Origin: Dehalococcoidia bacterium UBA7891 | GTDB lineage: Bacteria; Chloroflexota; Dehalococcoidia; Lucifugimonadales; UBA826 | NCBI GenBank assembly: GCA_002500485.1 | Contig: DLRJ01000033.1 | Coordinates: 7,035 to 71,034, forward strand | Direction: 5' to 3' | DNA length: 64,000 nt | Shown: one piece after another, positions 4,896 to 61,657 of the stretch | Layout of the letters: each line of letters opens with the position of its first letter | Numbering within the stretch: the stretch's first letter is position 1 | Program-made: the position numbers and the translations under genes | The notes under the pieces: generated by a model | Told to the model about the DNA's origin: nothing | Seen by the model: the letters and a program-made list of their open reading frames with translations, nothing else | Database searches by the model: none

Positions 4896-6164
4896 TTGCC
4901 AGGTCCGTTAGATGGAATAAAAATCGTTGAGTTCACCCAAATAATAGCTGCCCCGTTTGGAGGCATGTTATTGAGTGACATGGGTGCTGAGATAATTAAA
5001 ATCGAACCCATTGAAGGCGAACCTTGGAGACTCCACACTGAATTTCTACCCAAGGAAAGTAAAACATTCATAGCCTTGAATCGGGGGAAAAAAAGTCTTC
5101 CGTTGGATCTTCAAAGTAAAGAAGGTCTTGAGATCGCCCAGAAACTTGTGGCAGATGCCGATGTGGTTATCATAAACGCTCGACCAGACGTCCCTAAAAA
5201 GTTGGGGATTGACTACGAAACCCTATCTGAAGCCAACCCAAAGTTAATATATTGCGATAACACAGCATTCGGCCGACAGGGCCCTCATGGCTATAGACCA
5301 GGTTACGATCTGATTATTCAAGCTATGAGTGGTCTTTTAGCTGCTGACAATAAGGTCGTTGATGGTGTCCCACAACAGGTGACTGCGACTGCCGTTGCAG
5401 ATTACACCACGGGAGTTGCGATTGCCTGGGGTGTTAGCGCGGCCTTATTTTCGAGGGAACGTACCGGTAAAGGCCAAAAAATCGACACAACTCTGCTTTC
5501 GACATCTCTACTCATCCAAGGTGGGTTTATGGAGGTGGAAGAACATGGAAAGGAAGAGAAAGATGAACTGGTGGAGACTTTGGGTGCCTTAAGGCAAGCT
5601 GGCCTGCCGTACCAAAGCCTGTTGGACCAACAACAAATTTTCTCGCCATTTAATACAGCATTTCGTATCTATTACACCACATACCAAACTGCCAATGACG
5701 TGATTGCCATCGCTTGCTTAAGCAACAGGCTTAGAAAAAAAGCTGCCGATGCAATTGGTGTGGTTGATCCACGGTTTTCAGAAGGCTACGACCCTGAAGA
5801 TCCATCCATAGTGTCGGCAATAGAATCCCTATCGGAAGAAATGAAAACCATATTACTGAGTAAAACCGGTGAAGAATGGCTTTCGATCCTTGATGCAGCG
5901 GGAGTTCCGGCTGGTCCTGTGAGGTTTATACAAGAACTGACTAATGACGAACAAGTGATTGCAAATGATATGGTGGTAGAGGTAAATCACTCACTTGCTG
6001 GGAAAATTCGGATGGCTGGGCCCATGATACAAATGAGCGAAACCCCTTTGGCGGTGAAATCGGCATCTCCTGCTTTAGGGGAACATACTGATGAAATCAT
6101 GCTCAATCTCGGCTATTCTGAAGACGAGATTACCGATCTAAAATCCCGGAATATAACCCTCTGA
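4896..6164 (+). CDS. family III CoA-transferase (CaiB/BaiF family)
   Basis: PLDGIKIVEFTQIIAAPFGGMLLSDMGAEIIKIEP is the canonical N-terminus. TTG start with GGAG upstream. Confidence 0.9.
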   Translation: MPGPLDGIKIVEFTQIIAAPFGGMLLSDMGAEIIKIEPIEGEPWRLHTEFLPKESKTFIALNRGKKSLPLDLQSKEGLEIAQKLVADADVVIINARPDVPKKLGIDYETLSEANPKLIYCDNTAFGRQGPHGYRPGYDLIIQAMSGLLAADNKVVDGVPQQVTATAVADYTTGVAIAWGVSAALFSRERTGKGQKIDTTLLSTSLLIQGGFMEVEEHGKEEKDELVETLGALRQAGLPYQSLLDQQQIFSPFNTAFRIYYTTYQTANDVIAIACLSNRLRKKAADAIGVVDPRFSEGYDPEDPSIVSAIESLSEEMKTILLSKTGEEWLSILDAAGVPAGPVRFIQELTNDEQVIANDMVVEVNHSLAGKIRMAGPMIQMSETPLAVKSASPALGEHTDEIMLNLGYSEDEITDLKSRNITL

Positions 6165-13974: not shown

Positions 13975-14008
13975 ATATGAATAAGTTCACATATTGAGGT
14001 TCATTTGC

Positions 14009-14980
14009 ATGGCTGAATACAGCAAACCCGAAGCGGTTGATTGGGCGAAAGAAAATCTTCGCGGGCAATGGTCCACCCTAATGACCCCTTTTACGTCAGA
14101 AGATGAGATAGATGAAGAGGGACTTCGCAGAGATATACGACATGTAAAATCTTTAGGTACCAAAGGTGCTGGTTGCACCTGGGGCATGGGGGAATTCTGG
14201 ACTCTAACTAAAGAGGAAAGATTCCGAGTCTATGACATTGTTAGCGATGAAGCTGGAAATAACTGGCCAATTGGAGCTCATGTGTCCCACACATCTTTAA
14301 AAGAAATGCTAGATCTGGCCAGCTATGCCGAACATGCTGGGTTTGATTTACTAATTGTGGCTGCTCCTTATTTTGCTACACGAACTGAAGATCAAGTGAT
14401 AGATTGGGTAGGAAGCTTAGCCGACAACACAAATTTGGCGATTATGTATTACAACTCTCCACAATTTGGAACTGTTCTAGATGCAAACGGGTTAGAGCGC
14501 ATTTGCAATATTTCCAATGTAGTTGGAGTCAAAGAGGCCAGTTTCAATCCAGAACTTTCAATTGACACTCACTTAAAAATAGGTAAGCAAGCCATCATAA
14601 GTACCCCCGATGAATGGATATTCCAAAAAGGAAAAGAACTAGGTTTTGAACAACAAGTTATGTTTGCCAACACCTCTGACTGGAGATTTGATACACCTGA
14701 CTCCAACTACTATGTACAGTTTATTGACAAAGTGATGGAAGGGGACCTTGATAAGGATTTCTATAACACTAACATAAAGCCAATTAAAGAGGTTTCAGAT
14801 AAATGGTGGAAATACACTGTGCAGAAGATGGGGGGAGCATTACCTGCCTCCTTATGCAAATACTGGGGTGAACTCATGGGCATGTCAGGCGGACATGTCA
14901 GGGCACCACTGACCGATCTTACAGATGATGAAAAGAAACGATTAAAAAATGATATAGCCGCTGCCACAGGCAGGCTGTAA
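14009..14980 (+). CDS. dihydrodipicolinate synthase/N-acetylneuraminate lyase family class I aldolase (not the housekeeping DapA)
   Basis: Contains VVGVKEAS (Schiff-base Lys context) and an N-terminal MTPFTSEDEIDEEGL. The track start is TTG 13994. ATG 14009 has GAGG 9 nt upstream. Confidence 0.8.
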   Translation: MAEYSKPEAVDWAKENLRGQWSTLMTPFTSEDEIDEEGLRRDIRHVKSLGTKGAGCTWGMGEFWTLTKEERFRVYDIVSDEAGNNWPIGAHVSHTSLKEMLDLASYAEHAGFDLLIVAAPYFATRTEDQVIDWVGSLADNTNLAIMYYNSPQFGTVLDANGLERICNISNVVGVKEASFNPELSIDTHLKIGKQAIISTPDEWIFQKGKELGFEQQVMFANTSDWRFDTPDSNYYVQFIDKVMEGDLDKDFYNTNIKPIKEVSDKWWKYTVQKMGGALPASLCKYWGELMGMSGGHVRAPLTDLTDDEKKRLKNDIAAATGRL

Positions 14981-15021: not shown

Positions 15022-16005
15022 ATGATTCTTATGGTAAGTGTCCAAGATTTATATGAAGCAAAGCAAGCTCTAAAAGGCGGAGCTGATATAGTCGATGTCA
15101 AGAACCTTCAAGAAGCCCTAGTAGGTTCGGCTCATCCTAACGTAGTGAAAGAAATCAGAGATGAAGTTCCAAGTGCACACCACGCAAGTGTCACCTTAGG
15201 AGTTGTGCCTAACCAAATAGGCACCGTCTCTATGGCTGTTTATGCCGCCGGAATCCTGGACGCAACTTCGGTCAAAGTAGGCTTCATGGTGAGTGAATAC
15301 GATGTGGCACTAGAAACGTTATTAGCAGCAAAAGAAGCTCTAATAGGAACTCAAACTAAACTAATTGGCTCACTTTTTGCAGACAATCTACTCTATGACG
15401 GTGGCATTGACCCAGACCTCATGGTGCAATTGGCGAAAGAAGGTCAATGTGACGGTTTTTTAATAGATACACTTGTAAAAGACGGTAGAAATTTATTCGA
15501 CTTTGTACCTGAAGATCGTCTGAAAGAAATGGTTTTGGAGGGAAAAGAATTGGGCATGAGCACAGCCCTGTCAGGCCATTTGAAGATGAGTGACCTTGAC
15601 GAGCTATCAAGAGTCAATCCTGATATTGTTGGAGTCAGAGGAGCCGTTTGCCAAAAAGGAGATCGTGACTCTCGGGTTCACTGGGAATCTGTATCGGAGT
15701 TCAAAAAACAACTAGATCTCAGGCAAACCGGCGAAATAGATGTATATCCTGAAAATAGAACCTCATCCGTAAACCAAGAATCAAACGGATGGATAATAAT
15801 AGATGGCACAGGAAAGACCTGTGCCGGGATAATAGCAACTCTTAGTGAGCAAATAAATGCCGATACCGCGTCGTTTGTTGAAGTGATAATACCTGACGTT
15901 TTAAACACATATGACTTAATAGTCTGGGCAGAAAAAAACAGCCATGACATTGTTACTCAGAGAAAAGATGCAGAAGGTTCTGTGAGAATGCTTATTAAGC
16001 CATAA
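15022..16005 (+). CDS. MfnB-like (5-formylfuran-3-yl)methyl phosphate synthase family domain fused to a C-terminal TusA/SirA-like domain
   Basis: The N-terminal ~235 aa align by eye with MfnB (MILMVSV..GGADIVDVKN.., SVKVGF, DIVGVRGAVCQKGDR). The C-terminal ~70 aa (IIDGTGKTCAGIIATL...VEVIIPDVLNTYDLIVWAEKNSHDIV...VRMLIKP) follow the TusA fold pattern with its Cys retained. Confidence 0.7.
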   Translation: MILMVSVQDLYEAKQALKGGADIVDVKNLQEALVGSAHPNVVKEIRDEVPSAHHASVTLGVVPNQIGTVSMAVYAAGILDATSVKVGFMVSEYDVALETLLAAKEALIGTQTKLIGSLFADNLLYDGGIDPDLMVQLAKEGQCDGFLIDTLVKDGRNLFDFVPEDRLKEMVLEGKELGMSTALSGHLKMSDLDELSRVNPDIVGVRGAVCQKGDRDSRVHWESVSEFKKQLDLRQTGEIDVYPENRTSSVNQESNGWIIIDGTGKTCAGIIATLSEQINADTASFVEVIIPDVLNTYDLIVWAEKNSHDIVTQRKDAEGSVRMLIKP

Positions 16006-23194: not shown

Positions 23195-24649
23195 ATGAGC
23201 TATAAAAACCTGAGCGAATTCATTAGTTTTTTAGATTCTAAAAATCAAGTGCAATATATAGACGCTCAGGTGAGTAGGGATTTAGAAATTAGCGAGGTAA
23301 CCGATAGGGCAGTTAAGTCAGGAGGCCCTGTTCTGTATTTCCGTAATGTAGAAGGATTCACAATACCTGTTGTGACCAACCTATTTGGTACACACCAACG
23401 AATGGCTTGGGCTTTGGGTGTAGAAAATACTGATGATTTAACGCAGAAAGTCCGTGACATTCTGGGAATTGTAAAAACACCTCCCCAGTCAATGTTAGAC
23501 AAACTAAAAACTCTCAAAGACATGGCAAGCCTGGCCCGAACACAGCCCAAAAGAATTTCATCTGCTCCCTGTCAAGAAATAGTAAAGACGGGGCAAGATG
23601 CTAATCTAAATCATTTGCCTCATCTGACCTGCTGGCCTATGGACGGTGGCAGATACATCACTCTACCTCTGGTGATTTCTAAAGATCCTAGTTCAGGAAA
23701 AAGAAATGTCGGTACTTACCGTATGCAAATCTATGATTCTCACACTGCAGGCATGCATTGGCAGTCACATAAAGTCGGAGCAAGCCACTACAGGTCCGGC
23801 GAACTGAAGAAGTTACCAAAGATGGAAGTTGCCATTGCGTTAGGTTCCGACCCTGTAACTATGTGGACAGGAGCATTACCGTTACCTCCTGACATGGACG
23901 AAATAGCGGTATCAGGGGTATTGAGAAACTCATCTGTCGAAATGGTTAAATGTAAAACAGTTGACCTCGAAGTACCCGCCCATTCTGAAGCCGTGCTGGA
24001 AGGATATATAATCCCTGGGGAATTGAGGGAAGAGGGCCCGTTCGGTGATCACACCGGATACTATTCTCTTGAAGACAATTATCCTGTTTTCCATCTCACT
24101 GCTTTGACACATAAAAGACATCCCATTTATCCGGCCACTGTGGTAGGAAGGCCACCATCCGAAGATTTCTTTATGGGAAAAGCTGTAGAGAGGTTGATGC
24201 TTCCTGCACTCCAATTAACTTTGCCAGAGGTAGTAGATATTAATATGCCAGCAGAAGGTGTTTTCCATAATTTGGTTATCGTTTCAATGAAAAAGGAATA
24301 TCCAGGACACACAAGAAAGGTCATGAATGCAATTTGGGGATTGGGATTGATGATGCTGGCAAAAGGGATAGTCATTGTAGACGACACAGTTAATGTCCAT
24401 GATTTGTCTGAAGTTGCGTGGCGAGTCACTAGCAATATTAATCCAGATAAAGACATTGTGATCACCGAAGGACCTGTCGATGACTTAGATCATGCAAGCC
24501 CAACACCTAAATACGGGAGTAAAATCGGGATAGATGCTACAAAAAAGACCGCACTTGATGGAAGGGAAAGAATTTGGCCTCCTGACGTAGTAATGTCAGA
24601 GGAAATAAAATTGCTGGTCACTAATCGCTGGTCAGAGTACGGTTTTTGA
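23195..24649 (+). CDS. UbiD-family (prFMN-dependent) decarboxylase
   Basis: 484 aa. Typical UbiD N-terminus (LSEFISFLDSKNQVQYIDAQVS) plus GTYRMQ and EGPFGDHTGYY motifs. Confidence 0.92.
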   Translation: MSYKNLSEFISFLDSKNQVQYIDAQVSRDLEISEVTDRAVKSGGPVLYFRNVEGFTIPVVTNLFGTHQRMAWALGVENTDDLTQKVRDILGIVKTPPQSMLDKLKTLKDMASLARTQPKRISSAPCQEIVKTGQDANLNHLPHLTCWPMDGGRYITLPLVISKDPSSGKRNVGTYRMQIYDSHTAGMHWQSHKVGASHYRSGELKKLPKMEVAIALGSDPVTMWTGALPLPPDMDEIAVSGVLRNSSVEMVKCKTVDLEVPAHSEAVLEGYIIPGELREEGPFGDHTGYYSLEDNYPVFHLTALTHKRHPIYPATVVGRPPSEDFFMGKAVERLMLPALQLTLPEVVDINMPAEGVFHNLVIVSMKKEYPGHTRKVMNAIWGLGLMMLAKGIVIVDDTVNVHDLSEVAWRVTSNINPDKDIVITEGPVDDLDHASPTPKYGSKIGIDATKKTALDGRERIWPPDVVMSEEIKLLVTNRWSEYGF

Positions 24650-25521
24650 TATTCATGCCCCTTAACAGGTTTTGGCCGAAAATACCCAATTTCTTTGATG
24701 CAATAAAGTTTCAAGAATCTCTTTTCGCACTCCCTTTTGCCTACATAGGAATGCTGCTTGCGATTCGGGGCCTACCTGATTTTCAAAGCTTTTTTTGGAT
24801 AACACTCGCAATGGTGTCGGCTAGAACCGTGGGTATGATTGCTAACAGAATTATAGACAGACACATAGACTCAAAAAATCCACGGTCGTCGCAAAGGCAT
24901 CTCCCACGTGGAATTCTTTCAGTTACCGATTTGTTAGTCCCTGGAATAATTTCCTCACTCATTTTTATGCTATGCGCTTACATGCTTAACACTTTAGCAC
25001 TGATTTTAGCCCCTGTAGCTCTCATATACCTTGTGGTGTACCCGTTTACCAAAAGGGTCACTTGGTTGGCTAATTTGCTTCTTGGATGGGCTCTCGCCAT
25101 AGCCCCAGCAGCAGCTTGGATCGGAATGCTTGGTAAACTAGGATGGCAGCCTGTTTTACTTTCAACTTCAGTGGCCCTTTGGGCTGGAAGTTTTGACATC
25201 ATCTACCATACACAAGATGTTTCTTTTCAAAAAAAAGAGAAGTTACATTCAGTCGCATCTCGTTTTGGAATCTCTAAAGCCTTTAAAATTGCACAGTGCA
25301 TGGATCTATTGGCTGTATTGTGTCTAATAATACTAGGCGCATGGATGCAATTAGGAATATTTTATTACGGTGGCTGCGGATTAAGTACAATTTTTCTTGT
25401 CTACAAATATATATTAGTAAAGCCTAGCGATTTATCTAAAATGGGAATGAGCTTCATGAGAATTAACGCTTTTGTATCTTGTTCCATGTTGTTAGGTACA
25501 ATTGCATCATTAATAGTGTAA
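24646..25521 (+). CDS. UbiA-family aromatic prenyltransferase (4-hydroxybenzoate polyprenyltransferase / MqnP-like)
   Basis: 291 aa, polytopic. Contains the NRIIDRHIDSKNPR Asp-rich motif. It overlaps the UbiD stop by 4 nt. Confidence 0.88.
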   Translation: MIFMPLNRFWPKIPNFFDAIKFQESLFALPFAYIGMLLAIRGLPDFQSFFWITLAMVSARTVGMIANRIIDRHIDSKNPRSSQRHLPRGILSVTDLLVPGIISSLIFMLCAYMLNTLALILAPVALIYLVVYPFTKRVTWLANLLLGWALAIAPAAAWIGMLGKLGWQPVLLSTSVALWAGSFDIIYHTQDVSFQKKEKLHSVASRFGISKAFKIAQCMDLLAVLCLIILGAWMQLGIFYYGGCGLSTIFLVYKYILVKPSDLSKMGMSFMRINAFVSCSMLLGTIASLIV

Positions 25522-25523
25522 AA

Positions 25524-26123
25524 ATGGAAAAACTCGAGGCACGAATTGTGGTTGGTATATCTGGGGCTAGTGGATCCCTTTTAGCCGCCAAAACGGTTGA
25601 CGCATTGTTAGACAGAAAAGTTGGGGTATCGCTGATCGCGTCAAACCCAGCCCGAATGGTATGGCAGCACGAGATGAGTATGTCCTACGGAGAAAGTATT
25701 GAAGAATGGTCATCCAACAATAATTTTGAGCATTTCGCTATAGGGGATTTTAAGGCGCCTATAGCGAGTGGAACTTACCCAACTACTGGAATGGCCATAG
25801 TCCCATCTAGCATGGCAACAATTTCTGCAGTGGCAAAAGGTCTATCAGATAATTTAATAAGAAGAGCTGCCGACGTTTGCCTAAAAGAGAAAAGACCTTT
25901 AGCAATGGTTCCACGAGAGTCTCCGCTTAATGCTATACATCTAGGTAACATGAAATACCTCGCCACTTTGGGTGTGACTATCCTACCTTCAGACCCTCCA
26001 TACTACCTGCCTATAACGACCCTTGAGGAAGTTGCCAATTTTACAGCCCAGAGAATATTGATAGCACTAGGTATAACCGACCAACTACCTGAGGAGATGC
26101 AATATAGAGGTCCAATTATTTAA
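25524..26123 (+). CDS. ubiX: UbiX-family flavin prenyltransferase
   Basis: Contains RIVVGISGASGSLLAAK and PSSMATISAVAKGLSDNLIRRAADVCLKEKRPL. ATG lies 2 nt after the UbiA stop (the track ORF starts earlier, at 25479). Confidence 0.92.
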   Translation: MEKLEARIVVGISGASGSLLAAKTVDALLDRKVGVSLIASNPARMVWQHEMSMSYGESIEEWSSNNNFEHFAIGDFKAPIASGTYPTTGMAIVPSSMATISAVAKGLSDNLIRRAADVCLKEKRPLAMVPRESPLNAIHLGNMKYLATLGVTILPSDPPYYLPITTLEEVANFTAQRILIALGITDQLPEEMQYRGPII

Positions 26124-28535: not shown

Positions 28536-29738
28536 TTGAAACCCCAAGCTTTGAAAAATGTGAGGATTCTGGATTTGACTCACTATATATCTGGGCCATA
28601 CTGCACAAAACTATTGGGTGATTTTGGGGCCGATGTCATAAAAATTGAAAACCCTCTAGTCGGTGACCCTTGCAGAAAAATGCCACCCTTTGACGAAACC
28701 AACCCGAATAGTAATGACAGTCTTTTATTTCAATATCTCAACACCAACAAGAAAAGCGTTGAACTCGACTTAAAATCCGATTTCGGTCATCTTGCTGCTG
28801 AAGAATTAGTGAGGAATTCTGACATACTAGTGGAGAATTTTCGACCTGGAACCCTGGCATCCTACGGTTTAACAGAGAGCAAACTGCGTACCTTAAACCC
28901 CAATTTAATTGTTGTATCTATTAGTAATTTTGGCCAAACGGGACCTTATAGAGACTTTGAGGCAACTGATCTAGTATTTTATGCTTTGGGGGGATTGATG
29001 TTCATTTTTGGATCAATTAACAAATCTCCTCTCAAACACGCTTTCCACCAAGCACAATTCAAAGCAGGCACTAACGCAGCCTCAGCAGCATTAATGGCTT
29101 TCTACGAGATGATAAATTCGGGTACCGGTCAGAAAGTGGACATATCTATTCAGGAGAGCATGGCTGCAGCGGTACGTGATACAACCACAAGTTACGCCGC
29201 CTCTGGCATAGTTAGAACGAGACAAACATTAATGAACGGAGAGCTTCCTCGGGCACCTATACAAGTCAAAGATGGATATATCGTCCCAATCACTTTTGGA
29301 TCTACCGACTGGAACAAAACTGCCAATCTGTTGGGAGATGAAAGTTTGGCTGACCACAAATTTCAGACACCTGAAGGAAGAAGGATGCATGCTGAGGAAT
29401 TTGAGAACTTGGTGAAAGCTGCTTTCATCCGTAGAGGTAAACACGAACTTTTTTACGGAGCCCACTCTCACCGTGAACTGGTTTACGGATTAGTACAAGA
29501 CGCAGCGGATCTAATAGAAAACCCGCAATATCAACATGATCAATATTTTCAGGCTATTGGTAATTCCGGTTCAGATACACCCAAATTTCCAGGAAGACCT
29601 TTTAAGCTATCCAAAACTCCTTGGAATATACAAACAACTGCACCTGCATTAGGGCAACATACCGAGGAAATACTATTTAATAAATTAAATTTACCTATCG
29701 ATAAATTTCAGAATACTGGGCGGTCAAATGAAAAATAA
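28536..29738 (+). CDS. family III CoA-transferase
   Basis: Contains NVRILDLTHYISGPYCTKLLGDFGADVIKIENP. TTG start. Confidence 0.9.
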   Translation: MKPQALKNVRILDLTHYISGPYCTKLLGDFGADVIKIENPLVGDPCRKMPPFDETNPNSNDSLLFQYLNTNKKSVELDLKSDFGHLAAEELVRNSDILVENFRPGTLASYGLTESKLRTLNPNLIVVSISNFGQTGPYRDFEATDLVFYALGGLMFIFGSINKSPLKHAFHQAQFKAGTNAASAALMAFYEMINSGTGQKVDISIQESMAAAVRDTTTSYAASGIVRTRQTLMNGELPRAPIQVKDGYIVPITFGSTDWNKTANLLGDESLADHKFQTPEGRRMHAEEFENLVKAAFIRRGKHELFYGAHSHRELVYGLVQDAADLIENPQYQHDQYFQAIGNSGSDTPKFPGRPFKLSKTPWNIQTTAPALGQHTEEILFNKLNLPIDKFQNTGRSNEK

Positions 29739-31077
29739 TGGCATCCTCAACGGTATCCGAGTAGTTGAGCTAGGCCAACTAATCGCCGTGCCTTACGCCA
29801 CAAAACTCCTATCAGACATGGGTGCAGAAATTATCAGGTTGGAATCAGCTCAACGGCCGGATGCCTACCGGCTTGCTGATTTTTACGATGAGAGAGAGGA
29901 TGGGAAATATTGGAATCGAGCCATAAATTTTAATGAGCAAAATAGAAACAAACTAAGTCTTGGACTAGAATTAGACCATGAAAGCAGCCTTGAATATTTG
30001 CACGATTTGATTAGCATAAGTGATGTCTTTGCATGCAATTTCACCCCTAGAGTGATGAAAAAATTCGGCCTAGAGTACGAGCATCTCCAAAAAATACGTC
30101 CCGATATAATCGTCATTTCATCAACGGGTTATGGTCACACTGGACCGTGGTCGAGTTTTGGTGCCATAGGGTTTGGTACTGAGGCTGCGTCAGGACTTGC
30201 GGCCGCAACAGGATACGAAAATGGCCCACCAGTTCAACCAGAAATACCTTATCCAGATTACACTGCCGCCGAGCACACTGTCTTTGCTGTAATGGCAGCG
30301 CTTATACATAGACTAAAGGAAGGCGAAGGCCAGTTTATTGAGATATCGCAAGCAGAATGTGTTACATCAACTATCCCGGAAACAATACTTGAATACACAG
30401 CCAACAAAAAGATAGTTAAGCGAATGGGCAACTCGCATCCCAACATATCTCCACATGGCTGTTATCCATGCAAAGGTCAAGATAAATGGATAACCATCAC
30501 TGCTAATTCTCAGGATCAATGGAAATCATTATCAAATTTGTTGCTTCCAGAAACTGGCACTGACAATCGATTTGAATCTAATGAGTCACGCATACATAAC
30601 CGAAAAGAATTAGACAAATTGATATCTTCAAGAACTCTATCATGGGACAATGTCGTATTGATGAATACTTTACAAAGAAAAGGTGTGGCTGCAGGGGCAG
30701 TATTGAATGGTAAAGAACTGCTATTTAATGAGCATTTGAACCAAAGGGATTTTTTTGAAATAGTTGATCATCATCCAGAAAGTGAAGTTCCCACACTTCC
30801 ATATCCTGGCAAGCCATGGAAAATGTCGGCAAATTCAGATGTCAAAATGAAGGGAGCACCTTTATTTGGACAGCATAACGAATCAATATTGAAAAATCAC
30901 CTGGGATTGACCAACGAATCCTATGATGCACTGATTAATGAAGAAGCAGTGGTTAACTATATTAAATTAGACCCCAAAGAAATTCTTGTATCAAGAGAGG
31001 CGAGAGAAGAAGAAGGGTCTATATATTCTTATGATCCTGATTTCAAATCCACCATAAAATCTTATTTCAACATTTGA
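29728..31077 (+). CDS. family III CoA-transferase
   Basis: Contains GIRVVELGQLIAVPYATKLLSDMGAEIIRLES. It overlaps the previous gene by 11 nt. Confidence 0.9.
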   Translation: MKNNGILNGIRVVELGQLIAVPYATKLLSDMGAEIIRLESAQRPDAYRLADFYDEREDGKYWNRAINFNEQNRNKLSLGLELDHESSLEYLHDLISISDVFACNFTPRVMKKFGLEYEHLQKIRPDIIVISSTGYGHTGPWSSFGAIGFGTEAASGLAAATGYENGPPVQPEIPYPDYTAAEHTVFAVMAALIHRLKEGEGQFIEISQAECVTSTIPETILEYTANKKIVKRMGNSHPNISPHGCYPCKGQDKWITITANSQDQWKSLSNLLLPETGTDNRFESNESRIHNRKELDKLISSRTLSWDNVVLMNTLQRKGVAAGAVLNGKELLFNEHLNQRDFFEIVDHHPESEVPTLPYPGKPWKMSANSDVKMKGAPLFGQHNESILKNHLGLTNESYDALINEEAVVNYIKLDPKEILVSREAREEEGSIYSYDPDFKSTIKSYFNI

Positions 31078-34300: not shown

Positions 34301-34429
34301 ATGGAAGGATTAGCGGTAATGGGTTTTGTTTTCGGGATGGTAGGCGTTGTGGCGCTCGTTCGTTTGGAGAAATTGACAAAAGCACTAAAAGAAAAAGAAA
34401 TTTTAGATCAGGATTACAAGAAAGAATAA
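34301..34429 (+). CDS. candidate 42-aa single-pass membrane peptide
   Basis: MEGLAVMGFVFGMVGVVALVRLEKLTKALKEKEILDQDYKKE. GAAGG lies 5 nt upstream of the ATG. It is below the track cutoff. Confidence 0.4.
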   Translation: MEGLAVMGFVFGMVGVVALVRLEKLTKALKEKEILDQDYKKE

Positions 34430-34469: not shown

Positions 34470-34997
34470 TTGAATAAATCGATTTTTTTACCCTTATTAT
34501 TTGTAGTCGTTGCGTTAGCATGTACCACTGAACAAAATACCGTAGTACCACAGCGATTAAACAGTGCAGCAGAAGAGTCTTCTATTGAAAAATTGCCGTA
34601 TTTTCAGCTGAATACCTCCCATGGAAAAATATCTTCAGATCAGTTTTTAGTCGATAACAAACCCGAATTCTTACTTTTTATATCCCCTGATTGAGGTACA
34701 TGTATTTCCGAGTTACGGAAATTAGCTAACACTGATGAAGAACTTTCATCTTTGGCAAATATTTACATTATAGGGATGAATCCCGGTTATAAATTTAAGG
34801 ACCTCAAACGAATGGCAGTCGGAAACCCCAACTGGATTTATGCTCTACCAGCTGACGCCAGCACATTAAAGTCGATCACAGGGTTGAGCCGATCTACAAA
34901 AATTCTAGTAGGTGAAAAAAATCAGATTCTCAAAAGGTATAAAATGGGTGATTGGAACCTTTCTGAATGGATTGAAATATTTCAAAAGGCAGGCTAG
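34470..34997 (+). CDS. thioredoxin-fold (TlpA/redoxin-like) lipoprotein, probable selenoprotein with in-frame UGA (Sec at codon 75, U-G-T-C motif)
   Basis: Track ORFs 34470..34694 and 34752..34997 share a frame and are separated only by TGA 34692-34694. Read-through gives ...FLLFISPD-U-GTCISEL.... The signal peptide has lipobox VVALAC. A SECIS-like hairpin lies just downstream. Confidence 0.6.
34704..34722 (+). promoter_or_regulatory. SECIS-like stem-loop
   Basis: ATTTCCG-AGTTA-CGGAAAT is a perfect 7-bp stem starting 9 nt after the UGA. The apical loop contains GU. Confidence 0.5.
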
Positions 34998-35026: not shown

Positions 35027-35467
35027 TTAATTTTGAATCAGTTCATCAAGATATTTGGTGAAGCGGGGGACCATTACAAATCTGCCCATATTTTGATACC
35101 AGTCAATCACACCCGGTCCAGTACCTAGCATTATATTTGCATACATTGTTACTTGATCGCTGTTATTGTCGTAATCCCACAGCTCTTGGATTCTTAAAAA
35201 ATACGACACCATGAATACATTGAATCGATGTCTCTCTTCCTTATTCAAGGCTGTATCACCTTCAATTGCTCTTAAATATATGTGGGTGAAGCCAGGATCT
35301 GTGATCATGAAACCAATCCACTGAACTATACCACCGGTCAGTTCAGTCCGAGTTGCAACCAGAGAATCCCTATGCTGCAACTTTAGCTGTGATGCAAGGA
35401 AAACTGCGACAGCTAAGGTCGCTATCCCCGTCGCTGTTTGGGCTACGATAGATATATAGTCGAGCAT
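35027..35467 (-). CDS. hypothetical protein with one N-terminal TM helix
   Basis: The track ORF runs to 35542. ATG at 35467 (MLDYISIVAQ...) has GGAGG 10 nt upstream. I recognise no family. Confidence 0.55.
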   Translation of the reverse strand: MLDYISIVAQTATGIATLAVAVFLASQLKLQHRDSLVATRTELTGGIVQWIGFMITDPGFTHIYLRAIEGDTALNKEERHRFNVFMVSYFLRIQELWDYDNNSDQVTMYANIMLGTGPGVIDWYQNMGRFVMVPRFTKYLDELIQN

Positions 35468-35654
35468 TCTGAGCGTACCTCCAATAGGGCTGCAGTTTTG
35501 TTGTAGGACATAAAATACACCTTTCTGGTGGTGATGGTACATGGAGCATCTACAATTGAGATGTCAGACTCGATTCAAATTTTTGTGAGGATATAACGCA
35601 CCAGTCACATTAGACTAGAAAGATAGTTACACAATACGGTAATATCAGCTCATT

Positions 35655-36320
35655 ATGGAGAAAGAATTCAATTCCGAAAACCTTTATGAAGAGCTCCGGC
35701 AATCGCAAATGGATATACGCCACCTAGGTGACAGTATCCAGGCATTGCGAGAAGAATTGGAATCTCAAAATTATGAGAAAGACAAAAATGTTCAATCGGT
35801 CCGGATGGAAGGGGTTGATGAAGTGATCCAGCTGAAAGAAACCATCACTAGCTTGCGAGAAGAACTTCAAAATATGCAGTTTGAAAACAGCCAATCAGTT
35901 GAAAGACTACACAGCGACTACGCAGAGGAAATGCAACAACTCAGGGATACAGCCAGCAGTCTTCGTACTGAACTCGAAGAATTGAAATTCCAGAAAGACC
36001 GCGATGTTCAAAAGGCTATTTCTGATTCTGCAATAGAATGCGACCAATTGCGGGCTACTGCTGGGGCGCTAAGACAGGAACTTGAAGATCTTCGATTCAA
36101 CAAGGATAACGAAGTGCAAAAAGCCATAACTGGTGGAGCGGATGAAATTATGCAGTTAAAAGAAACATCTGCATCCTTAAGAGATAACATTGAAACCATC
36201 AAGAGTGAATATGACCAAAAGCTTCACGATATAAAGCGAGATGCCCTCGATGAAAAAAACCATCTCACTGAAACAATAGTAACTTTGAGAAATTCATTGG
36301 AAGGAAATTCCAAAAAATGA
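35655..36320 (+). CDS. alpha-helical repeat protein built from six in-register 36-residue repeats, function unknown
   Basis: 221 aa. LR pairs occur at residues 31/67/103/139/175/211 and (Q/H)L at 23-24/59-60/95-96/131-132/167-168/203-204, an exact 36-aa period. Confidence 0.75.
   Translation: MEKEFNSENLYEELRQSQMDIRHLGDSIQALREELESQNYEKDKNVQSVRMEGVDEVIQLKETITSLREELQNMQFENSQSVERLHSDYAEEMQQLRDTASSLRTELEELKFQKDRDVQKAISDSAIECDQLRATAGALRQELEDLRFNKDNEVQKAITGGADEIMQLKETSASLRDNIETIKSEYDQKLHDIKRDALDEKNHLTETIVTLRNSLEGNSKK
35715..36302 (+). repeat. six tandem ~108-nt coding repeats (diverged at DNA level, conserved at protein level)
   Basis: Unit consensus is roughly xQLKETxxSLREELExLxFxKDxxVQKAIxxxxxEx. 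Confidence 0.7.
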
Positions 36321-48696: not shown

Positions 48697-49545
48697 TTAC
48701 AGGAAATCGTTAACAAACCCTTCTAATTGTTCCAAGGCTTCTTTCTCAGGGACGCTGTCAATGGATAAAACTATTCTTTCGGCACCTGCTGAAAAAAGTT
48801 CACTTACTATACTGGGATCAGGGGTAGCACCGTAAACAGTTATTCCTATCGTGGAAAAATCCCTGCCTGATTCCTCACAGAGTCTTTTAAGTTCATTTTT
48901 ACCGCTCTCAATATCTCCAGGGGTTATACGATTCGGCATCCAAGCATCGCCCCAACTTACCACTCTTTTAAATACATTTTTTGCATGACCGCCCAGATAT
49001 ATGGGAGGGTGTGGGCGCTGAACTGGCATTGGAAAAGAATACACAGGAGGAAAATCATAATACTTACCGTGATATTCACTTTCCACCGTGGTCCAAAGTT
49101 CTTTCATGGCCATCACAGATTCTCTGGTCTGAGTCCAACGGTGGGCAAAATCACCTCCCATAATATCCGTTTCTTCTTTTAACCAGCCGGCCCCAATACC
49201 AAACAAAAATCTGCCCTTGGCATACATATCTAGAGTCGCTACCTCTTTTGCGAGTATAAGAGGGTTTCTTTCTGGCACCAAGCAAATACCTGTTCCTAAT
49301 AATAGCTTATCTGTAACTGCCGAAGCTCGACCTAAAGCCACAAAGGGATCGGCCACATCGGCATACTTTTTAGGTATCACACCACCTGGACCCGGCCAAG
49401 GTGTTTCTGCACCCACAGGTAATACTGGATGCTCAGCAACCCACAATGAATCGAATCCAGCTTCTTCCGCTTTCGCTGCCAAAACTGCTATATCAATAGC
49501 ATAATCTGTTGGAAATGTAGTTATCCCTATATTACCCATTTGCAC
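48697..49545 (-). CDS. luciferase-like monooxygenase (LLM) class, probably F420-dependent oxidoreductase
   Basis: 282 aa. Contains AEEAGFDSLWVAEHP..., LGTGICLVPERNP and FGIGAGW. Confidence 0.8.
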   Translation of the reverse strand: MQMGNIGITTFPTDYAIDIAVLAAKAEEAGFDSLWVAEHPVLPVGAETPWPGPGGVIPKKYADVADPFVALGRASAVTDKLLLGTGICLVPERNPLILAKEVATLDMYAKGRFLFGIGAGWLKEETDIMGGDFAHRWTQTRESVMAMKELWTTVESEYHGKYYDFPPVYSFPMPVQRPHPPIYLGGHAKNVFKRVVSWGDAWMPNRITPGDIESGKNELKRLCEESGRDFSTIGITVYGATPDPSIVSELFSAGAERIVLSIDSVPEKEALEQLEGFVNDFL

Positions 49546-57632: not shown

Positions 57633-58784
57633 ATGAGAATTAATATGGCACAGATCGTTGGAAATCTAGTTTTAATAACCATGCTCGTGGCGATGCTCGC
57701 CTGCTCTAATAACATCTCAGACAATTCAATAGCAAACCCCCAAATAGCCCCGAAACTTCTCCCTATTGAATTTGGCACTTCAGGGCCATGGATCAATAGT
57801 GAACCATTTGTCTTACAGGAAAAGAGGAACGAGGTCGTTCTAATCGATTTTTGGACCTACACCTGCATCAACTGCATAAGGACTCTTCCGCACCTAAATG
57901 AATGGCACCGGAAATACAACGAAAAGGGTCTAAATGTTTTGGGAGTGCATAGTCCCGAATTTGAGTTTGAGAAAATATATGGCAATGTCGTCTCTGCTGC
58001 AGAGTATTTAGGAATTGATTATCCGATAGTGATGGATAACGATTTCAATATATGGAACACATTTGATAATCGATACTGGCCTTCGAAATACCTTTTGGAT
58101 AAAGATGGGGTGATCCAATTTAGCCACTTTGGTGAAGGGGGATACGAAGAGACAGAATTAGCAATAAGAGCTTTATTAGAGGAGGCTGGCTTCGATACCT
58201 CAGATATCCCTTTAGAAGTTAATCTCCACCAAAAAGGTGATTCGTCCAATATTTCCAATGAGCAAACGTTGGAGTTATACATGGGTACTGATAGAAACTA
58301 CAAATTCAACTTTTTTCAAGATACATATATCGGAAATAAAGAATACTATGAAAATATTCGAACCGATGCTTGGAAGAAAAAAGATGTCTTTAAAAGTCCC
58401 TCCAAAAAACAAAAAAATAGGGTTTATATTGAAGGTTTGTGGAGTAAAGAAAAAGAATATATTTCTCACAGCAGAAATACTGATGCTTACATCGATCAAA
58501 TTTTTCTAAAGTTCTCAGGGGCTGAGGTGAACGTGGTTTTGGGAAAACATAAAACCCCCTATAAGGTACTAATCACCCTGGATGGATTCCCTGTAAAGAA
58601 ATCAGAAGCGGGTAAGGATGTCTACTTTGACCCTAGCGGAAAGAGCTTTGTTCAAGTCGACAGTTCTCGGATGTATAACTTCGTTAAGTTGAAAAAATTC
58701 GACACGCGAGAGCTAATATTAAGCTCTACATCATCTGGGTTCTCCATTTATTCTTTCACTTTCGGCTCCGATGTAAGGGAATAA
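57633..58784 (+). CDS. extracytoplasmic thioredoxin-fold lipoprotein (DipZ C-terminal-like redoxin plus beta-rich C-terminal domain)
   Basis: Signal peptide with lipobox (VAMLAC). Contains VVLIDFWTYTCINCIRTLPHL, a CxxC motif. Confidence 0.8.
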   Translation: MRINMAQIVGNLVLITMLVAMLACSNNISDNSIANPQIAPKLLPIEFGTSGPWINSEPFVLQEKRNEVVLIDFWTYTCINCIRTLPHLNEWHRKYNEKGLNVLGVHSPEFEFEKIYGNVVSAAEYLGIDYPIVMDNDFNIWNTFDNRYWPSKYLLDKDGVIQFSHFGEGGYEETELAIRALLEEAGFDTSDIPLEVNLHQKGDSSNISNEQTLELYMGTDRNYKFNFFQDTYIGNKEYYENIRTDAWKKKDVFKSPSKKQKNRVYIEGLWSKEKEYISHSRNTDAYIDQIFLKFSGAEVNVVLGKHKTPYKVLITLDGFPVKKSEAGKDVYFDPSGKSFVQVDSSRMYNFVKLKKFDTRELILSSTSSGFSIYSFTFGSDVRE

Positions 58785-58792
58785 TCATTTAA

Positions 58793-59722
58793 ATGAGCTA
58801 CAACAGATTCCTTTCTATTTTCTTGTTTTGTATTGGCATAACCACCTTAACGACCTCTTGCAATGATATTAAAGACCCATTTACAGATGAATATCCGATA
58901 AAAAGCTCAATCACCGAGGGAGGCTATCAAATAGTTTTGGCTACGACAGATCTGGCCGTAGGGGAAAATCGATTCGCATTTATAGTTCTGTCTGAGACAG
59001 GGTTTATCAATAGAGATTATTCCATGGTGACCTTTTATGCTCCGATCAAGCATTCACAAGAATCAAAAAAAACTGCCCAGTTCATGCATTGGGACGATCT
59101 CAACAGAGGATCTTTTGTCGCCAATGTGAATTTTCCGTACCCTGGAAAATGGACATTCCAGGTAGATTTACAGGACAACGAAAAAGACATTTCGGTTCAA
59201 GCGAATTTCACTGTTAACGAAAAAACTGTCGCCCCAAATGAAGGTGATAAGGCTCCCATAACAAAGAACAAAACCTTAGACAGCGTAGTAAATATCCAGC
59301 AACTCTCAACAGGAAATGTAATTGCCCCTGACCTGTATCGACACTCAATCAAGGATGCAATGGAAAATGGTAAGGCCACTGTTGTTACTTTTTCCAGCCC
59401 CGCTTTCTGTCAAGATGAGACATGTGGACCACAGGTGAAAGTGCTACAAAAATTAAGCTCTTATATGAATTCTTCAATAAATTTCATCCATGTTGAAATT
59501 TATGATAACCCAGTCGAACTCCAAAATGATTCTAAGGCTGGTTTGTACTCTGAGACTTTCAAAAAATGGAACTTGCCGAGCTTTCAATGGACATTCATCA
59601 TCAATTGCCTCGGTGAGATATCACATCGGTATCAAGGATTCGTATCCTCTGAAGAACTAGACGGAGCCATAAAGTTTTTTATCCCAGGGAAAGGAGGTAA
59701 GAATCATTGTTTAGTAATCTAA
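58793..59722 (+). CDS. lipoprotein with N-terminal YtkA/FixH-like beta domain and C-terminal thioredoxin-like domain carrying an atypical C-x4-C motif
   Basis: Lipobox LTTSC. The GENRFAFIVL block suggests a beta domain. Also contains TVVTFSSPAFCQDETCGPQ. Confidence 0.6.
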   Translation: MSYNRFLSIFLFCIGITTLTTSCNDIKDPFTDEYPIKSSITEGGYQIVLATTDLAVGENRFAFIVLSETGFINRDYSMVTFYAPIKHSQESKKTAQFMHWDDLNRGSFVANVNFPYPGKWTFQVDLQDNEKDISVQANFTVNEKTVAPNEGDKAPITKNKTLDSVVNIQQLSTGNVIAPDLYRHSIKDAMENGKATVVTFSSPAFCQDETCGPQVKVLQKLSSYMNSSINFIHVEIYDNPVELQNDSKAGLYSETFKKWNLPSFQWTFIINCLGEISHRYQGFVSSEELDGAIKFFIPGKGGKNHCLVI

Positions 59723-60618: not shown

Positions 60619-61497
60619 TTATTGAAACAATGGTAAGGCCCCTCGACATGCTAACAACAACCCGACAGCTAGTAGAACGAAGCCCATCGTAAGAATAAGA
60701 GTGTTCAGATTCACTTTCCCGGTTAACTTCGCACCATACCAACTACCAACCATAGCACCCGCTCCCATAAGGATTAAAACAGGGTAATCGACCTTTCCCT
60801 GACTAGCGTGCCCTATCCATCCTACAGCTCCCATAAAAAATCCGATAAAAAGATTAGATCCTGCAGCAATACGGGGATCGATTTTAAGAACTCTGACAAG
60901 AGCTGGTAAGCGTATGCTGCCCAAAATAAGCCCAACGGCACCGCCCAGAAGCCCAACCCCCAACCCAATTCCGGCTTCTGCAGAAACCCGCCCAGGAGTG
61001 AATAGCCCTGAAGATCCCTCTAATCCAGCCCCGAATAGAGGAGAAGTTGATTGGCCGGATTTTACACGGTTTTGGTAGATAATGATGAATTCTACTCCCT
61101 GCCACAACACGAGTAGTCCTGCGAGAAATAGGAGTATCCCTTCGTGTATTACACCACTGAGGAATCCTCCAGCAAAGGCCCCTGCAAAAGCAGGAATACC
61201 CATCACTATTACTATCCTCATGTCCACCCTACCTCCCCGCCAATGCTTTATTGCGCCTGACGGAGAACTAAGACTGCTGACCATAATATTAGTTCCTCCC
61301 GCAATGGCAGCTGGTGTCCCTAAAAGCAGCAGTGCAGGTAAGCGAATCGTTCCCAAAGCAAGGCCAACAAATCCACCAAGTATTCCTACTAATAGAGATA
61401 TAATGGTCAGTAAGAGAGCCTTCCAGACAAGATGGTCGGACGGAAGTCCAATATCTCCAAGGGTCAAAGCCATTAAATCTGAGAAAGTCTGTTCCAT
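60619..61497 (-). CDS. TauE/SafE-family anion (sulfite/sulfonate) exporter
   Basis: Polytopic, with a duplicated G-rich TM pattern (GGFVGLALGTIRLPALLL and GGAVGLILGSIRLPALV). ATG 61497 (MEQTF...) is preferred over the track start at 61590. Confidence 0.75.
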   Translation of the reverse strand: MEQTFSDLMALTLGDIGLPSDHLVWKALLLTIISLLVGILGGFVGLALGTIRLPALLLLGTPAAIAGGTNIMVSSLSSPSGAIKHWRGGRVDMRIVIVMGIPAFAGAFAGGFLSGVIHEGILLFLAGLLVLWQGVEFIIIYQNRVKSGQSTSPLFGAGLEGSSGLFTPGRVSAEAGIGLGVGLLGGAVGLILGSIRLPALVRVLKIDPRIAAGSNLFIGFFMGAVGWIGHASQGKVDYPVLILMGAGAMVGSWYGAKLTGKVNLNTLILTMGFVLLAVGLLLACRGALPLFQ

Positions 61498-61657
61498 ATA
61501 GTCTCTCTTTCCACGATTATGCGCTTTCAGAAAGCCAATGAATAGGAATGGTACAACTGTTACTAGTTCAAATGTATGATACCAAGGCACTTATCCCAAG
61601 AAACCGGATACGTAATGTCACGTATGGCATCGCTTCCAGCCAATTAGGAGAGAGAAA

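Follow-up and report, generated by a model that had tools for sequence, protein, structure and literature searches.

Reading frame of the locus

The locus at positions 34470-34997 (+) of the window, by which we mean the whole 64,000-nucleotide stretch of contig DLRJ01000033.1 (Dehalococcoidia bacterium UBA7891) analyzed here, raises the question of whether an in-frame TGA ends a short gene or is translated as selenocysteine (Sec). Two open reading frames (ORFs), 34470..34694 and 34752..34997, share one frame at this locus, and an initial annotation, made from the DNA letters, had read them as the halves of a Sec-containing thioredoxin-fold lipoprotein split only by the TGA at 34692-34694. Analysis of the frame showed that it comprises 175 codons followed by TAG and that this TGA is indeed the sole internal stop; read-through gives ...KPEFLLFISPD-[TGA]-GTCISELRKLA.... 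The start codon was found to be TTG rather than ATG, and relatives carry TTG or ATG at the equivalent position. The true stop TAG is at 34995..34997 (+), and homologues stop at the same aligned position with TAA. The complete coding sequence (34470..34997, +), with its TTG start and the proposed Sec-UGA at codon 75, is colinear and full-length across 55 loci. The conservation of the TGA, its alignment with cysteines of homologous proteins, and the constraint on a downstream hairpin all support a Sec-containing thioredoxin-fold protein. Judging from these comparisons of sequence, it is very likely that UGA75 is recoded as Sec and that 34470-34997 is one gene of the SAR202 cluster (Chloroflexota, Dehalococcoidia). 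The product is best explained as an extracytoplasmic protein of 175 residues, anchored in the membrane, that has a thioredoxin fold of the ResA/CcmG/TlpA type and Sec as the nucleophilic active-site residue.

Standard gene callers had been expected to report such a gene as fragments, and the public records at this locus are of that kind. The calls are either 74 + 73 amino acids (aa) or only a C-terminal piece of 61-81 aa. Every public gene call examined was either split into 'hypothetical protein' fragments, such as the GenBank entries MAR86511.1 + MAR86510.1, KAA1284097.1, and MAO75408.1, or had its N-terminal half dropped. The N-terminal fragment cluster occurs on more than 300 contigs, and the gene is abundant in ocean metagenomes. 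On long contigs, the family is found only as fragments (approximately 60-108 aa), the N-terminal ones ending exactly in ...FISPN or ...FISPY. Full-length versions with a tryptophan ('W') in place of the TGA (L001-L011, L057, L058; P0001-P0008, P0013, P0023) were seen only on contigs shorter than 2 kb, under genetic code 4. Once the fragments are joined, SAR202 genomes regain a redox enzyme, and the combination of 'W'-containing full-length proteins on short contigs with fragments on long contigs offers a route for mining selenoproteins in large catalogues.

Conservation of the TGA and translation past it

A single in-frame stop that splits a gene, and a public annotation that treats the gene as fragments, could also mean that a TGT/TGC or TGG codon has mutated to TGA and that the gene is dead in this genome. 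We examined 55 related loci, comprising the window, 14 species-level genomes, 29 metagenome contigs, and additional contigs. The 14 genomes came from unbiased scans and all belong to SAR202/Dehalococcoidia/Chloroflexota, two being single-cell genomes and the rest metagenome-assembled genomes (MAGs). The results showed that TGA is present at codon 75 in 55/55 loci (42 distinct gene segments, with 50-91% aa identity to the window).

The codon is also kept in two distant subfamilies, which were found by an all-against-all profile search. In L058 (U-G-H-C, approximately 21% identity), the TGA is followed by a 9-nt spacer and the same 19-nt hairpin as in the window. In L057 (U-G-K-C, approximately 25-29% identity), the spacer is again 9 nt and the hairpin is CGTTCCG-AGTTA-CGGAACT. 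Both subfamilies were recovered from AT-rich short marine contigs (L057:286-837 and L058:495-1016).

No stretch of the protein is better conserved than the residues that follow the TGA (G-T-C-x-S-E-L-R-K-L), and these precede the earliest potential restart codon, at 34752. Synonymous codon use was observed past the TGA, with four codons at Thr+2, two at Cys+3, and five at Leu+10. The median pairwise ratio of nonsynonymous to synonymous substitution rates (dN/dS) was 0.18 downstream of the TGA and 0.11 upstream; between the window and L012, the corresponding values were 0.14 and 0.19. Thus, since dN/dS is approximately 0.15 on both sides of the TGA, the downstream half is translated. No further disabling lesions were found, downstream dN/dS (approximately 0.11-0.19) being the same as upstream. 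Together with the presence of the TGA in at least 14 species and with the frozen hairpin, which follows the codon only in TGA-bearing members, this contradicts the death of the gene.

A second way of taking the TGA as a true stop is that the locus encodes two small proteins, namely a lipoprotein of 74 aa and a protein of 81 aa that would start at TTG 34752, with the hairpin as an intercistronic regulatory or coupling element. Both ORFs exist mechanically, and some pipelines call both of them (L065). The 19 codons that separate the TGA from the earliest downstream start nevertheless evolve as coding DNA and encode the most conserved part of the protein. The thioredoxin fold needs both halves, the TGA being flanked by strand 66-71 and helix 76-87, and the Cys-containing homologues are single polypeptides. 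The conservation and coding-type evolution of residues that precede any restart therefore exclude, for practical purposes, both the pseudogene and the pair of small genes; we consider the former to have almost no probability and the latter to be very improbable.

Two variations were noted in this region of the alignment and beyond it. The codon preceding the proposed Sec codon encodes Asp in the window (GAT, 34689-34691) and Asn, Phe, or Tyr in all other sequences; contigs L026-L030, with approximately 90% protein identity, have AAT where the window has the Asp codon. L009:111-647 contains a second in-frame TGA at codon 119 (SM*DSG) on a contig with a coverage of 1.7, and its siblings L020, L046, and P0009 have Ser at this position. 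The second TGA of L009 is probably a sequencing error or the mark of a dead copy.

A constrained hairpin after the TGA

The sequence ATTTCCG-AGTTA-CGGAAAT at 34704-34722 (+), nine nt past the TGA, can form a hairpin in which seven Watson-Crick pairs enclose a loop of 5 nt, as the initial annotation had described. Positions 34704-34710 pair with 34716-34722, and the apical loop AGUUA, which contains GU, occupies 34711-34715. The whole element lies within the codons I79-S80-E81-L82-R83-K84. The calculated energy is −5.9 to −8.2 kcal/mol for the hairpin alone, and the minimum free energy (MFE) in context is −7.5. Of the 2475 TGA triplets in the window, 13 (0.5%) precede a perfect stem-loop of 7 bp or more that has the geometry of a bacterial Sec insertion sequence (SECIS). 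The window sequence alone gives modest evidence for the hairpin, and the decisive support is comparative.

The comparison showed that the codons in the hairpin are frozen. In 42 distinct sequences there was no synonymous variation at Ser+5 (TCC), Glu+6 (GAG), Leu+7 (TTA), or Arg+8 (CGG), whereas every other degenerate column with an invariant residue varies synonymously (0.45-2.04 bits). Lys+9 is AAA, with AAG appearing only alongside a C or a wobble partner, and nearly all loci share the 17-nt core TTTCCGAGTTACGGAAA unchanged.

Pairing was quantitated in 25 distinct 60-nt segments, with the 3' arm slid along the sequence as a control. The stem cells were paired in 98.9% of cases, as compared with at most 57% in the slid controls. 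The second stem pair (20-36) is U-A in 21 segments, C-G in 3, and U-G in 1, and the G-C pair in L057 adds a further compensatory type. The basal pair (19-37) is A-U in 13, G-U in 6, G-C in 4, and A·C in 2. The five remaining stem pairs and the AGUUA loop are invariant in these segments. RNAalifold independently gave the same stem. The hairpin is under constraint at the RNA level and covaries at its two variable pairs. TGA and hairpin, whose joint conservation the initial annotation had proposed to check, both occur in 55/55 loci, with frozen synonymous sites and compensatory changes. A lower-stem extension that pairs the UGA region was seen in single-sequence MFE folds; it was absent from the RNAalifold consensus and was not adopted.

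Bacterial SECIS elements are constrained to a loop of 3-9 nt, a stem of 4-16 bp, and a spacing of 16-37 nt between the UGA and the loop, and the bSECIS model also needs a G in the first two loop positions and an MFE of −7.5 or lower (PMC13188914). The hairpin fits this model, at its limits, with a loop of 5 nt, a stem of 7 bp, a G at loop position 2 followed by U, and a spacing of 16 nt. Like the minimal element of Escherichia coli fdhF and the bSECISearch consensus, it is intragenic, lies directly 3' of the UGA, has a small apical loop with G-U, and falls within the 16-37 nt spacing range. Unlike them, it has no bulged U, is only 19 nt long with the minimal 16-nt spacing, and is marginally stable, and its sequence is frozen across subfamilies. 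The hairpin offers a clear-cut natural case of a candidate bacterial SECIS of very small size whose nucleotides also encode a conserved peptide of the active site.

Fold and active site

The structure of the protein was examined on P0002, a homologue with 60% identity to the window protein. The AlphaFold2 (AF2) model had a mean predicted local distance difference test (pLDDT) score of 83, with values above 90 over residues 41-175. It shows an N-terminal helix (4-15), a disordered linker (20-36), and a thioredoxin fold that has a hairpin at its N-terminus and an insert in its centre, and in which strand 66-71 is followed by helix 76-87. Position 75 lies at the N-terminus of this helix. The thioredoxin-fold domain (residues approximately 41-175) corresponds to 34590..34994 (+) of the window.

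Foldseek searches with this model found DsbE/CcmG, ResA, and SdbA with E values of 2e-8 to 1e-7 and TM scores of 0.69-0.76. The structures matched were ResA 1st9/2h1a, CcmG 2b1k, and SdbA 5um7, and included the ResA E80Q, C74A, and C77A structures. Profile searches gave ResA, StoA, CcmG, and two 'thioredoxin family protein' chains with E values of 1e-9 to 1e-19. Peroxiredoxins and Sco appeared alongside these as remoter fold relatives, the peroxiredoxin structures ranking below or equal to the ResA-type matches with partial coverage. Assignment as a peroxiredoxin was rejected, since the PxxxT/SxxC motif is absent, S-P-D-U-G-T-C having its Pro two residues before U.

We then compared the position of the TGA with the active sites of Cys-containing proteins. 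As had been anticipated, the TGA coincides precisely with the first Cys of CxxC, both in the profile alignment to structures in the Protein Data Bank (PDB), e.g. WCKPC of Bacillus anthracis ResA 4nmu, and in the Cys homologues (SPYCGTC in P0024, SSSCPTC in P0025, and ATWCPxC in P0027/P0031). Cys occupies the aligned position in P0024, P0025, P0027, P0031, P0035, P0028, and P0037. The Cys homologue P0024 (locus L059; C-G-T-C) has the codon TGT, and the hairpin is absent from its gene with the Glu-Leu residues kept. The pair U75/C78 (redox motif U-G-T-C, 34692..34703, +) is placed at the N-terminus of helix alpha1, with the proposed Sec replacing the first Cys, and C78 is invariant in all alignments. 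The family motif is [NFDY]-U-G-T-C-[IVT]-S-E-L-R-K. Its Glu81 (codon GAG, 34710..34712, +), three residues past C78, is invariant in Sec and Cys members alike; we take its spacing to be the same as that of ResA Glu80, which lies three residues past Cys77.

A hydrophobic leader, MNKSIFLPLLFVVVALA (34470..34523, +), ends at Cys18, which is invariant in the alignment. The lipobox [LVI][ASTVI][GAS]C fits only loosely: residues −3 to −1 are A-L-A in the window protein, and relatives have T-A, I-G, N-G, A-A, or F-A before Cys18. Of the lipoprotein signal peptide proposed earlier, the leader and the Cys are conserved and the lipobox is a loose match; lipidation at Cys18, and with it lipoprotein status, is plausible. 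Chloroflexota are generally regarded as single-membrane bacteria, and for this reason we prefer 'extracytoplasmic, membrane-anchored' to 'periplasmic' for the 175-aa Sec oxidoreductase proposed earlier.

Evidence weighing against selenocysteine insertion

Several results weigh against the assignment of UGA75 to Sec or of the protein to the ResA/CcmG/TlpA type. As regards the protein, the cis-Pro loop is replaced, R-S-T-K (R141-S142-T143-K144, window 34893-34904) standing where ResA has L-P-T-S. The read-through protein scored below the cut-offs of Pfam AhpC-TSA (18.6 versus 26 bits) and Redoxin (12.9 versus 26.6), and the NCBIfam models were likewise below cut-off. As regards the RNA, the hairpin alone is weak (−5.9 kcal/mol), single-sequence folding of a 65-nt region was no better than that of shuffled sequences (z = −0.9), and the bSECIS model only just accommodates the spacing (16 nt) and MFE (−7.5). 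In 2 of 25 distinct sequences, the basal pair is a mismatched A·C, and five of the seven pairs never vary, so that they are evidence of sequence constraint only and not of pairing. Rfam searches, with gathering and with permissive thresholds, matched no relevant family. As regards the genome, the window and the other loci examined (529 kb in all) yielded no tRNA-Sec, selA, selB, or selD, and a search of the same SAR202 DNA for conserved in-frame TGA codons near Cys/Ser/Thr gave no other selenoprotein gene.

The replacement of the cis-Pro loop makes the precise activity less certain. The closest Cys homologues also lack this Pro, and P0028 and P0037 have F-P-S and S-P-A, respectively, at the loop; within the family, the replacement is invariant as R/Q-S-T-K. 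Pfam Thioredoxin_8 gave no match in the read-through protein, and the Cys homologue P0024 does match AhpC-TSA. Membership in NCBIfam NF053656 (redoxin_TUGYCR) was rejected at 12.1 bits (E 0.13) against a cut-off of 100.

With pairing tested by two pairs only, the frozen 17 nt might be something other than a SECIS, e.g. the product of extreme codon preference for a critical peptide, or a site that binds a protein or an sRNA and has no part in recoding. The S, L, R, E, and K columns elsewhere in the gene use 2-5 codons each, and both variable pairs change in a compensatory manner. The element co-occurs strictly with the TGA, at a fixed distance of 9 nt, across 21-91% protein identity, and is missing from the Cys homologue even though E-L is kept there. 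We therefore regard an element unrelated to recoding as highly unlikely.

The search for Sec machinery bears on another possibility, namely that the UGA is read without Sec, either through a reassigned code (4 or 25; Trp/Gly) or by a near-cognate tRNA (Trp/Cys) with the hairpin pausing the ribosome. Stem-loops can stimulate read-through in other systems, and databases contain full-length versions with 'W' at UGA75. ARAGORN did not find a tRNA-Sec in the window or in 14 genome loci, tblastn of E. coli SelA, SelB, and SelD against the 529 kb gave only EF-Tu-like matches beside tRNA-Thr/Tyr, and sel genes were absent from the Pfam annotation of essentially all window ORFs.

The 'W'-containing proteins were examined at the DNA level. 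A search of 5.8 billion proteins gave nine relatives with 52-61% identity, all on contigs shorter than 2 kb, and 8/8 of those that span the site have 'W' at the TGA position. The DNA behind this 'W' is TGA; among 12 sequences, all genuine Trp codons are TGG, and the genes end with TAA or TAG. This fits gene calling under genetic code 4 on short contigs. Of 46 long ORFs in the window, 8 end with TGA, among them the CoA-transferase gene at 29728-31077, and the genetic code is therefore the standard one; reassignment to code 4 or code 25 was rejected because of this stop-codon usage. The codon also coincides with the catalytic Cys of CxxC, a position at which Trp or Gly would destroy the active site, and the loop is invariant besides the stem and matches the G-U rule of SelB-binding elements. 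In our view, translation of the UGA without Sec is improbable, and Sec insertion accounts best for the conserved codon.

Published data bear on the occurrence of Sec decoding in this group. In BSepDB, MAGs of Dehalococcoidia are among the most selenoprotein-rich bacteria, with 46-49 selenoproteins (PMC13326102). Two sponge bins have SelA and SelB COGs (PMC5649159 Table S4); the 16S reference closest to these bins is that of a SAR202 single-cell genome, at only approximately 83% identity (PMC5649159).

Proposed mechanism

The following sequence of events would account for the observations. UGA75 would be recoded co-translationally, with the 19-nt hairpin, i.e. the stem of 6-7 bp and the AGUUA loop presenting G-U, acting as a bacterial SECIS. 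The hairpin would recruit SelB·GTP·Sec-tRNA(Sec) to the ribosome while the UGA is in the A site, and the same nucleotides would encode I/V-S-E-L-R-K, including the invariant Glu81. After export and probable lipidation at Cys18, the selenol/thiol pair could perform thiol-disulfide (selenenylsulfide) exchange on extracytoplasmic substrates. Dependence on SelB and the incorporation of selenium at UGA75 are what we infer from the codon and its hairpin, and family resemblance alone suggests that the protein would act as a reductase and what its substrates may be.

If this interpretation is true, SAR202, a dominant lineage of the dark ocean, would invest in Sec-decoding machinery and depend on selenium supply. 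Should the family also prove to be an undescribed, SAR202-centred one, a possibility taken up below, Sec decoding would be documented for a bacterial lineage that ranks among the most abundant of the deep ocean. A redox activity outside the cell that depends on selenium and is distinct from that of cytochrome-maturation reductases would then be hinted at, for example in the repair or reduction of oxidized sulfur compounds or proteins in oxygenated deep water.

Relation to known proteins

The protein shares with ResA, CcmG (DsbE), TlpA, StoA, and SdbA the fold, the N-terminal beta-hairpin extension, the redox dyad at the N-terminus of helix alpha1, and a probable N-terminal membrane anchor or lipoprotein signal. 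It differs from them in the proposed Sec in place of the first Cys (UGTC), in the replaced cis-Pro, and in Pfam AhpC-TSA/Redoxin scores below the gathering cut-off. A further difference is that no conserved neighbour for cytochrome c maturation, CcdA, Msr, or Sco accompanies the gene.

One of the two 'thioredoxin family protein' chains, PDB 2yp6, was matched by the profile from the first residue, so that both the leader and the TlpA-like domain were covered (E 2.7e-14). We take this structure to be Etrx1 of Streptococcus pneumoniae. Etrx1 is a surface thioredoxin-family lipoprotein of a single-membrane bacterium; it uses Cys and works with the partners CcdA and MsrAB2. The protein described here differs from it in the proposed Sec, and no partners of the CcdA/MsrAB2 type were seen near the gene.

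UxxC selenoproteins on TlpA-like or redoxin scaffolds have been described from Sargasso Sea and Global Ocean Sampling (GOS) metagenomes and are listed in current reviews. The class of UxxC thioredoxin-fold selenoproteins is thus already known. The present protein resembles these marine families in its UxxC motif on a TlpA-like/redoxin scaffold, its marine origin, the Sec/Cys pair, and the intragenic SECIS-like element; it differs, in a comparison made by description only, in having no Thioredoxin_8 match and a sub-threshold AhpC-TSA score. NF053656 (redoxin_TUGYCR) is likewise a thioredoxin-fold selenoprotein family with U-G-x-C, and differs in that our protein scores below its cut-off. Neither of two reviews on UxxC selenoprotein families mentions Chloroflexota or SAR202, and a literature search for SAR202 together with selenocysteine, selenoprotein, or selenium gave no specific report. 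We tentatively raise the possibility, which we consider somewhat unlikely at present, that the locus belongs to an undescribed, SAR202-centred selenoprotein family, i.e. a ResA-like lipoprotein with a lost cis-Pro loop, U-G-T-C, and a minimal 19-nt SECIS frozen across approximately 21-29% identity.

Genomic neighbourhood and other genes in the window

The GC content is 42%, and the GlmS protein encoded in the window is identical to HJO59789.1 of a SAR202-cluster MAG. The selenoprotein gene candidate is flanked on one side by glmS and a 42-codon ORF, and on the other by two uncharacterized genes and a gene for a GAF-PAS-cyclase protein. The arrangement with glmS upstream and the GAF-PAS-cyclase gene downstream was found in one subclade only, and the divergent loci have unrelated neighbours. 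Among the loci compared, none had a conserved neighbour encoding CcdA, ResBC/cytochrome c maturation proteins, Msr, or Sco.

The 42-codon ORF, MEGLAVMGFVFGMVGVVALVRLEKLTKALKEKEILDQDYKKE, lies at 34301-34429 (+), between glmS and the selenoprotein gene candidate; its product looks like a small membrane protein, and several public contigs that carry an identical glmS list the ORF as a gene. The two genes directly downstream, 35027-35542 (−) and 35655-36320 (+), are conserved and have no significant Pfam matches. Of their products, the 171-aa protein is found in some subclades only and the 221-aa protein is syntenic in all close relatives.

The window also encodes a second extracytoplasmic thioredoxin-like lipoprotein of 383 aa (57633-58784, +), with a leader ending in LAC and an active site C-I-N-C with ordinary Cys. 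It matches Thioredoxin_8/AhpC-TSA, with Thioredoxin_10 at the C-terminus. Its gene is followed by one for a YtkA-like protein (58793-59722, +) and lies near a gene of the TauE sulfite-exporter family (60619-61590, −); these genes may form another envelope redox module.

Three paralogues of family-III CoA-transferases occur within the 64 kb (4896-6164, 28536-29738, and 29728-31077, +), along with many dehydrogenases and a luciferase-like monooxygenase (48697-49545). A cluster of genes for UbiD, UbiA, and a UbiX-like flavoprotein at 23195-26123 (+) corresponds to genes for a prenyl-FMN decarboxylase and a prenyltransferase. The gene at 15022-16005 (+), adjoining one of the DHDPS family (13994-14980), matches 4-HFC-P synthase (PF04476) of the methanofuran-biosynthesis MfnB family, which is unexpected in a marine Chloroflexota genome.

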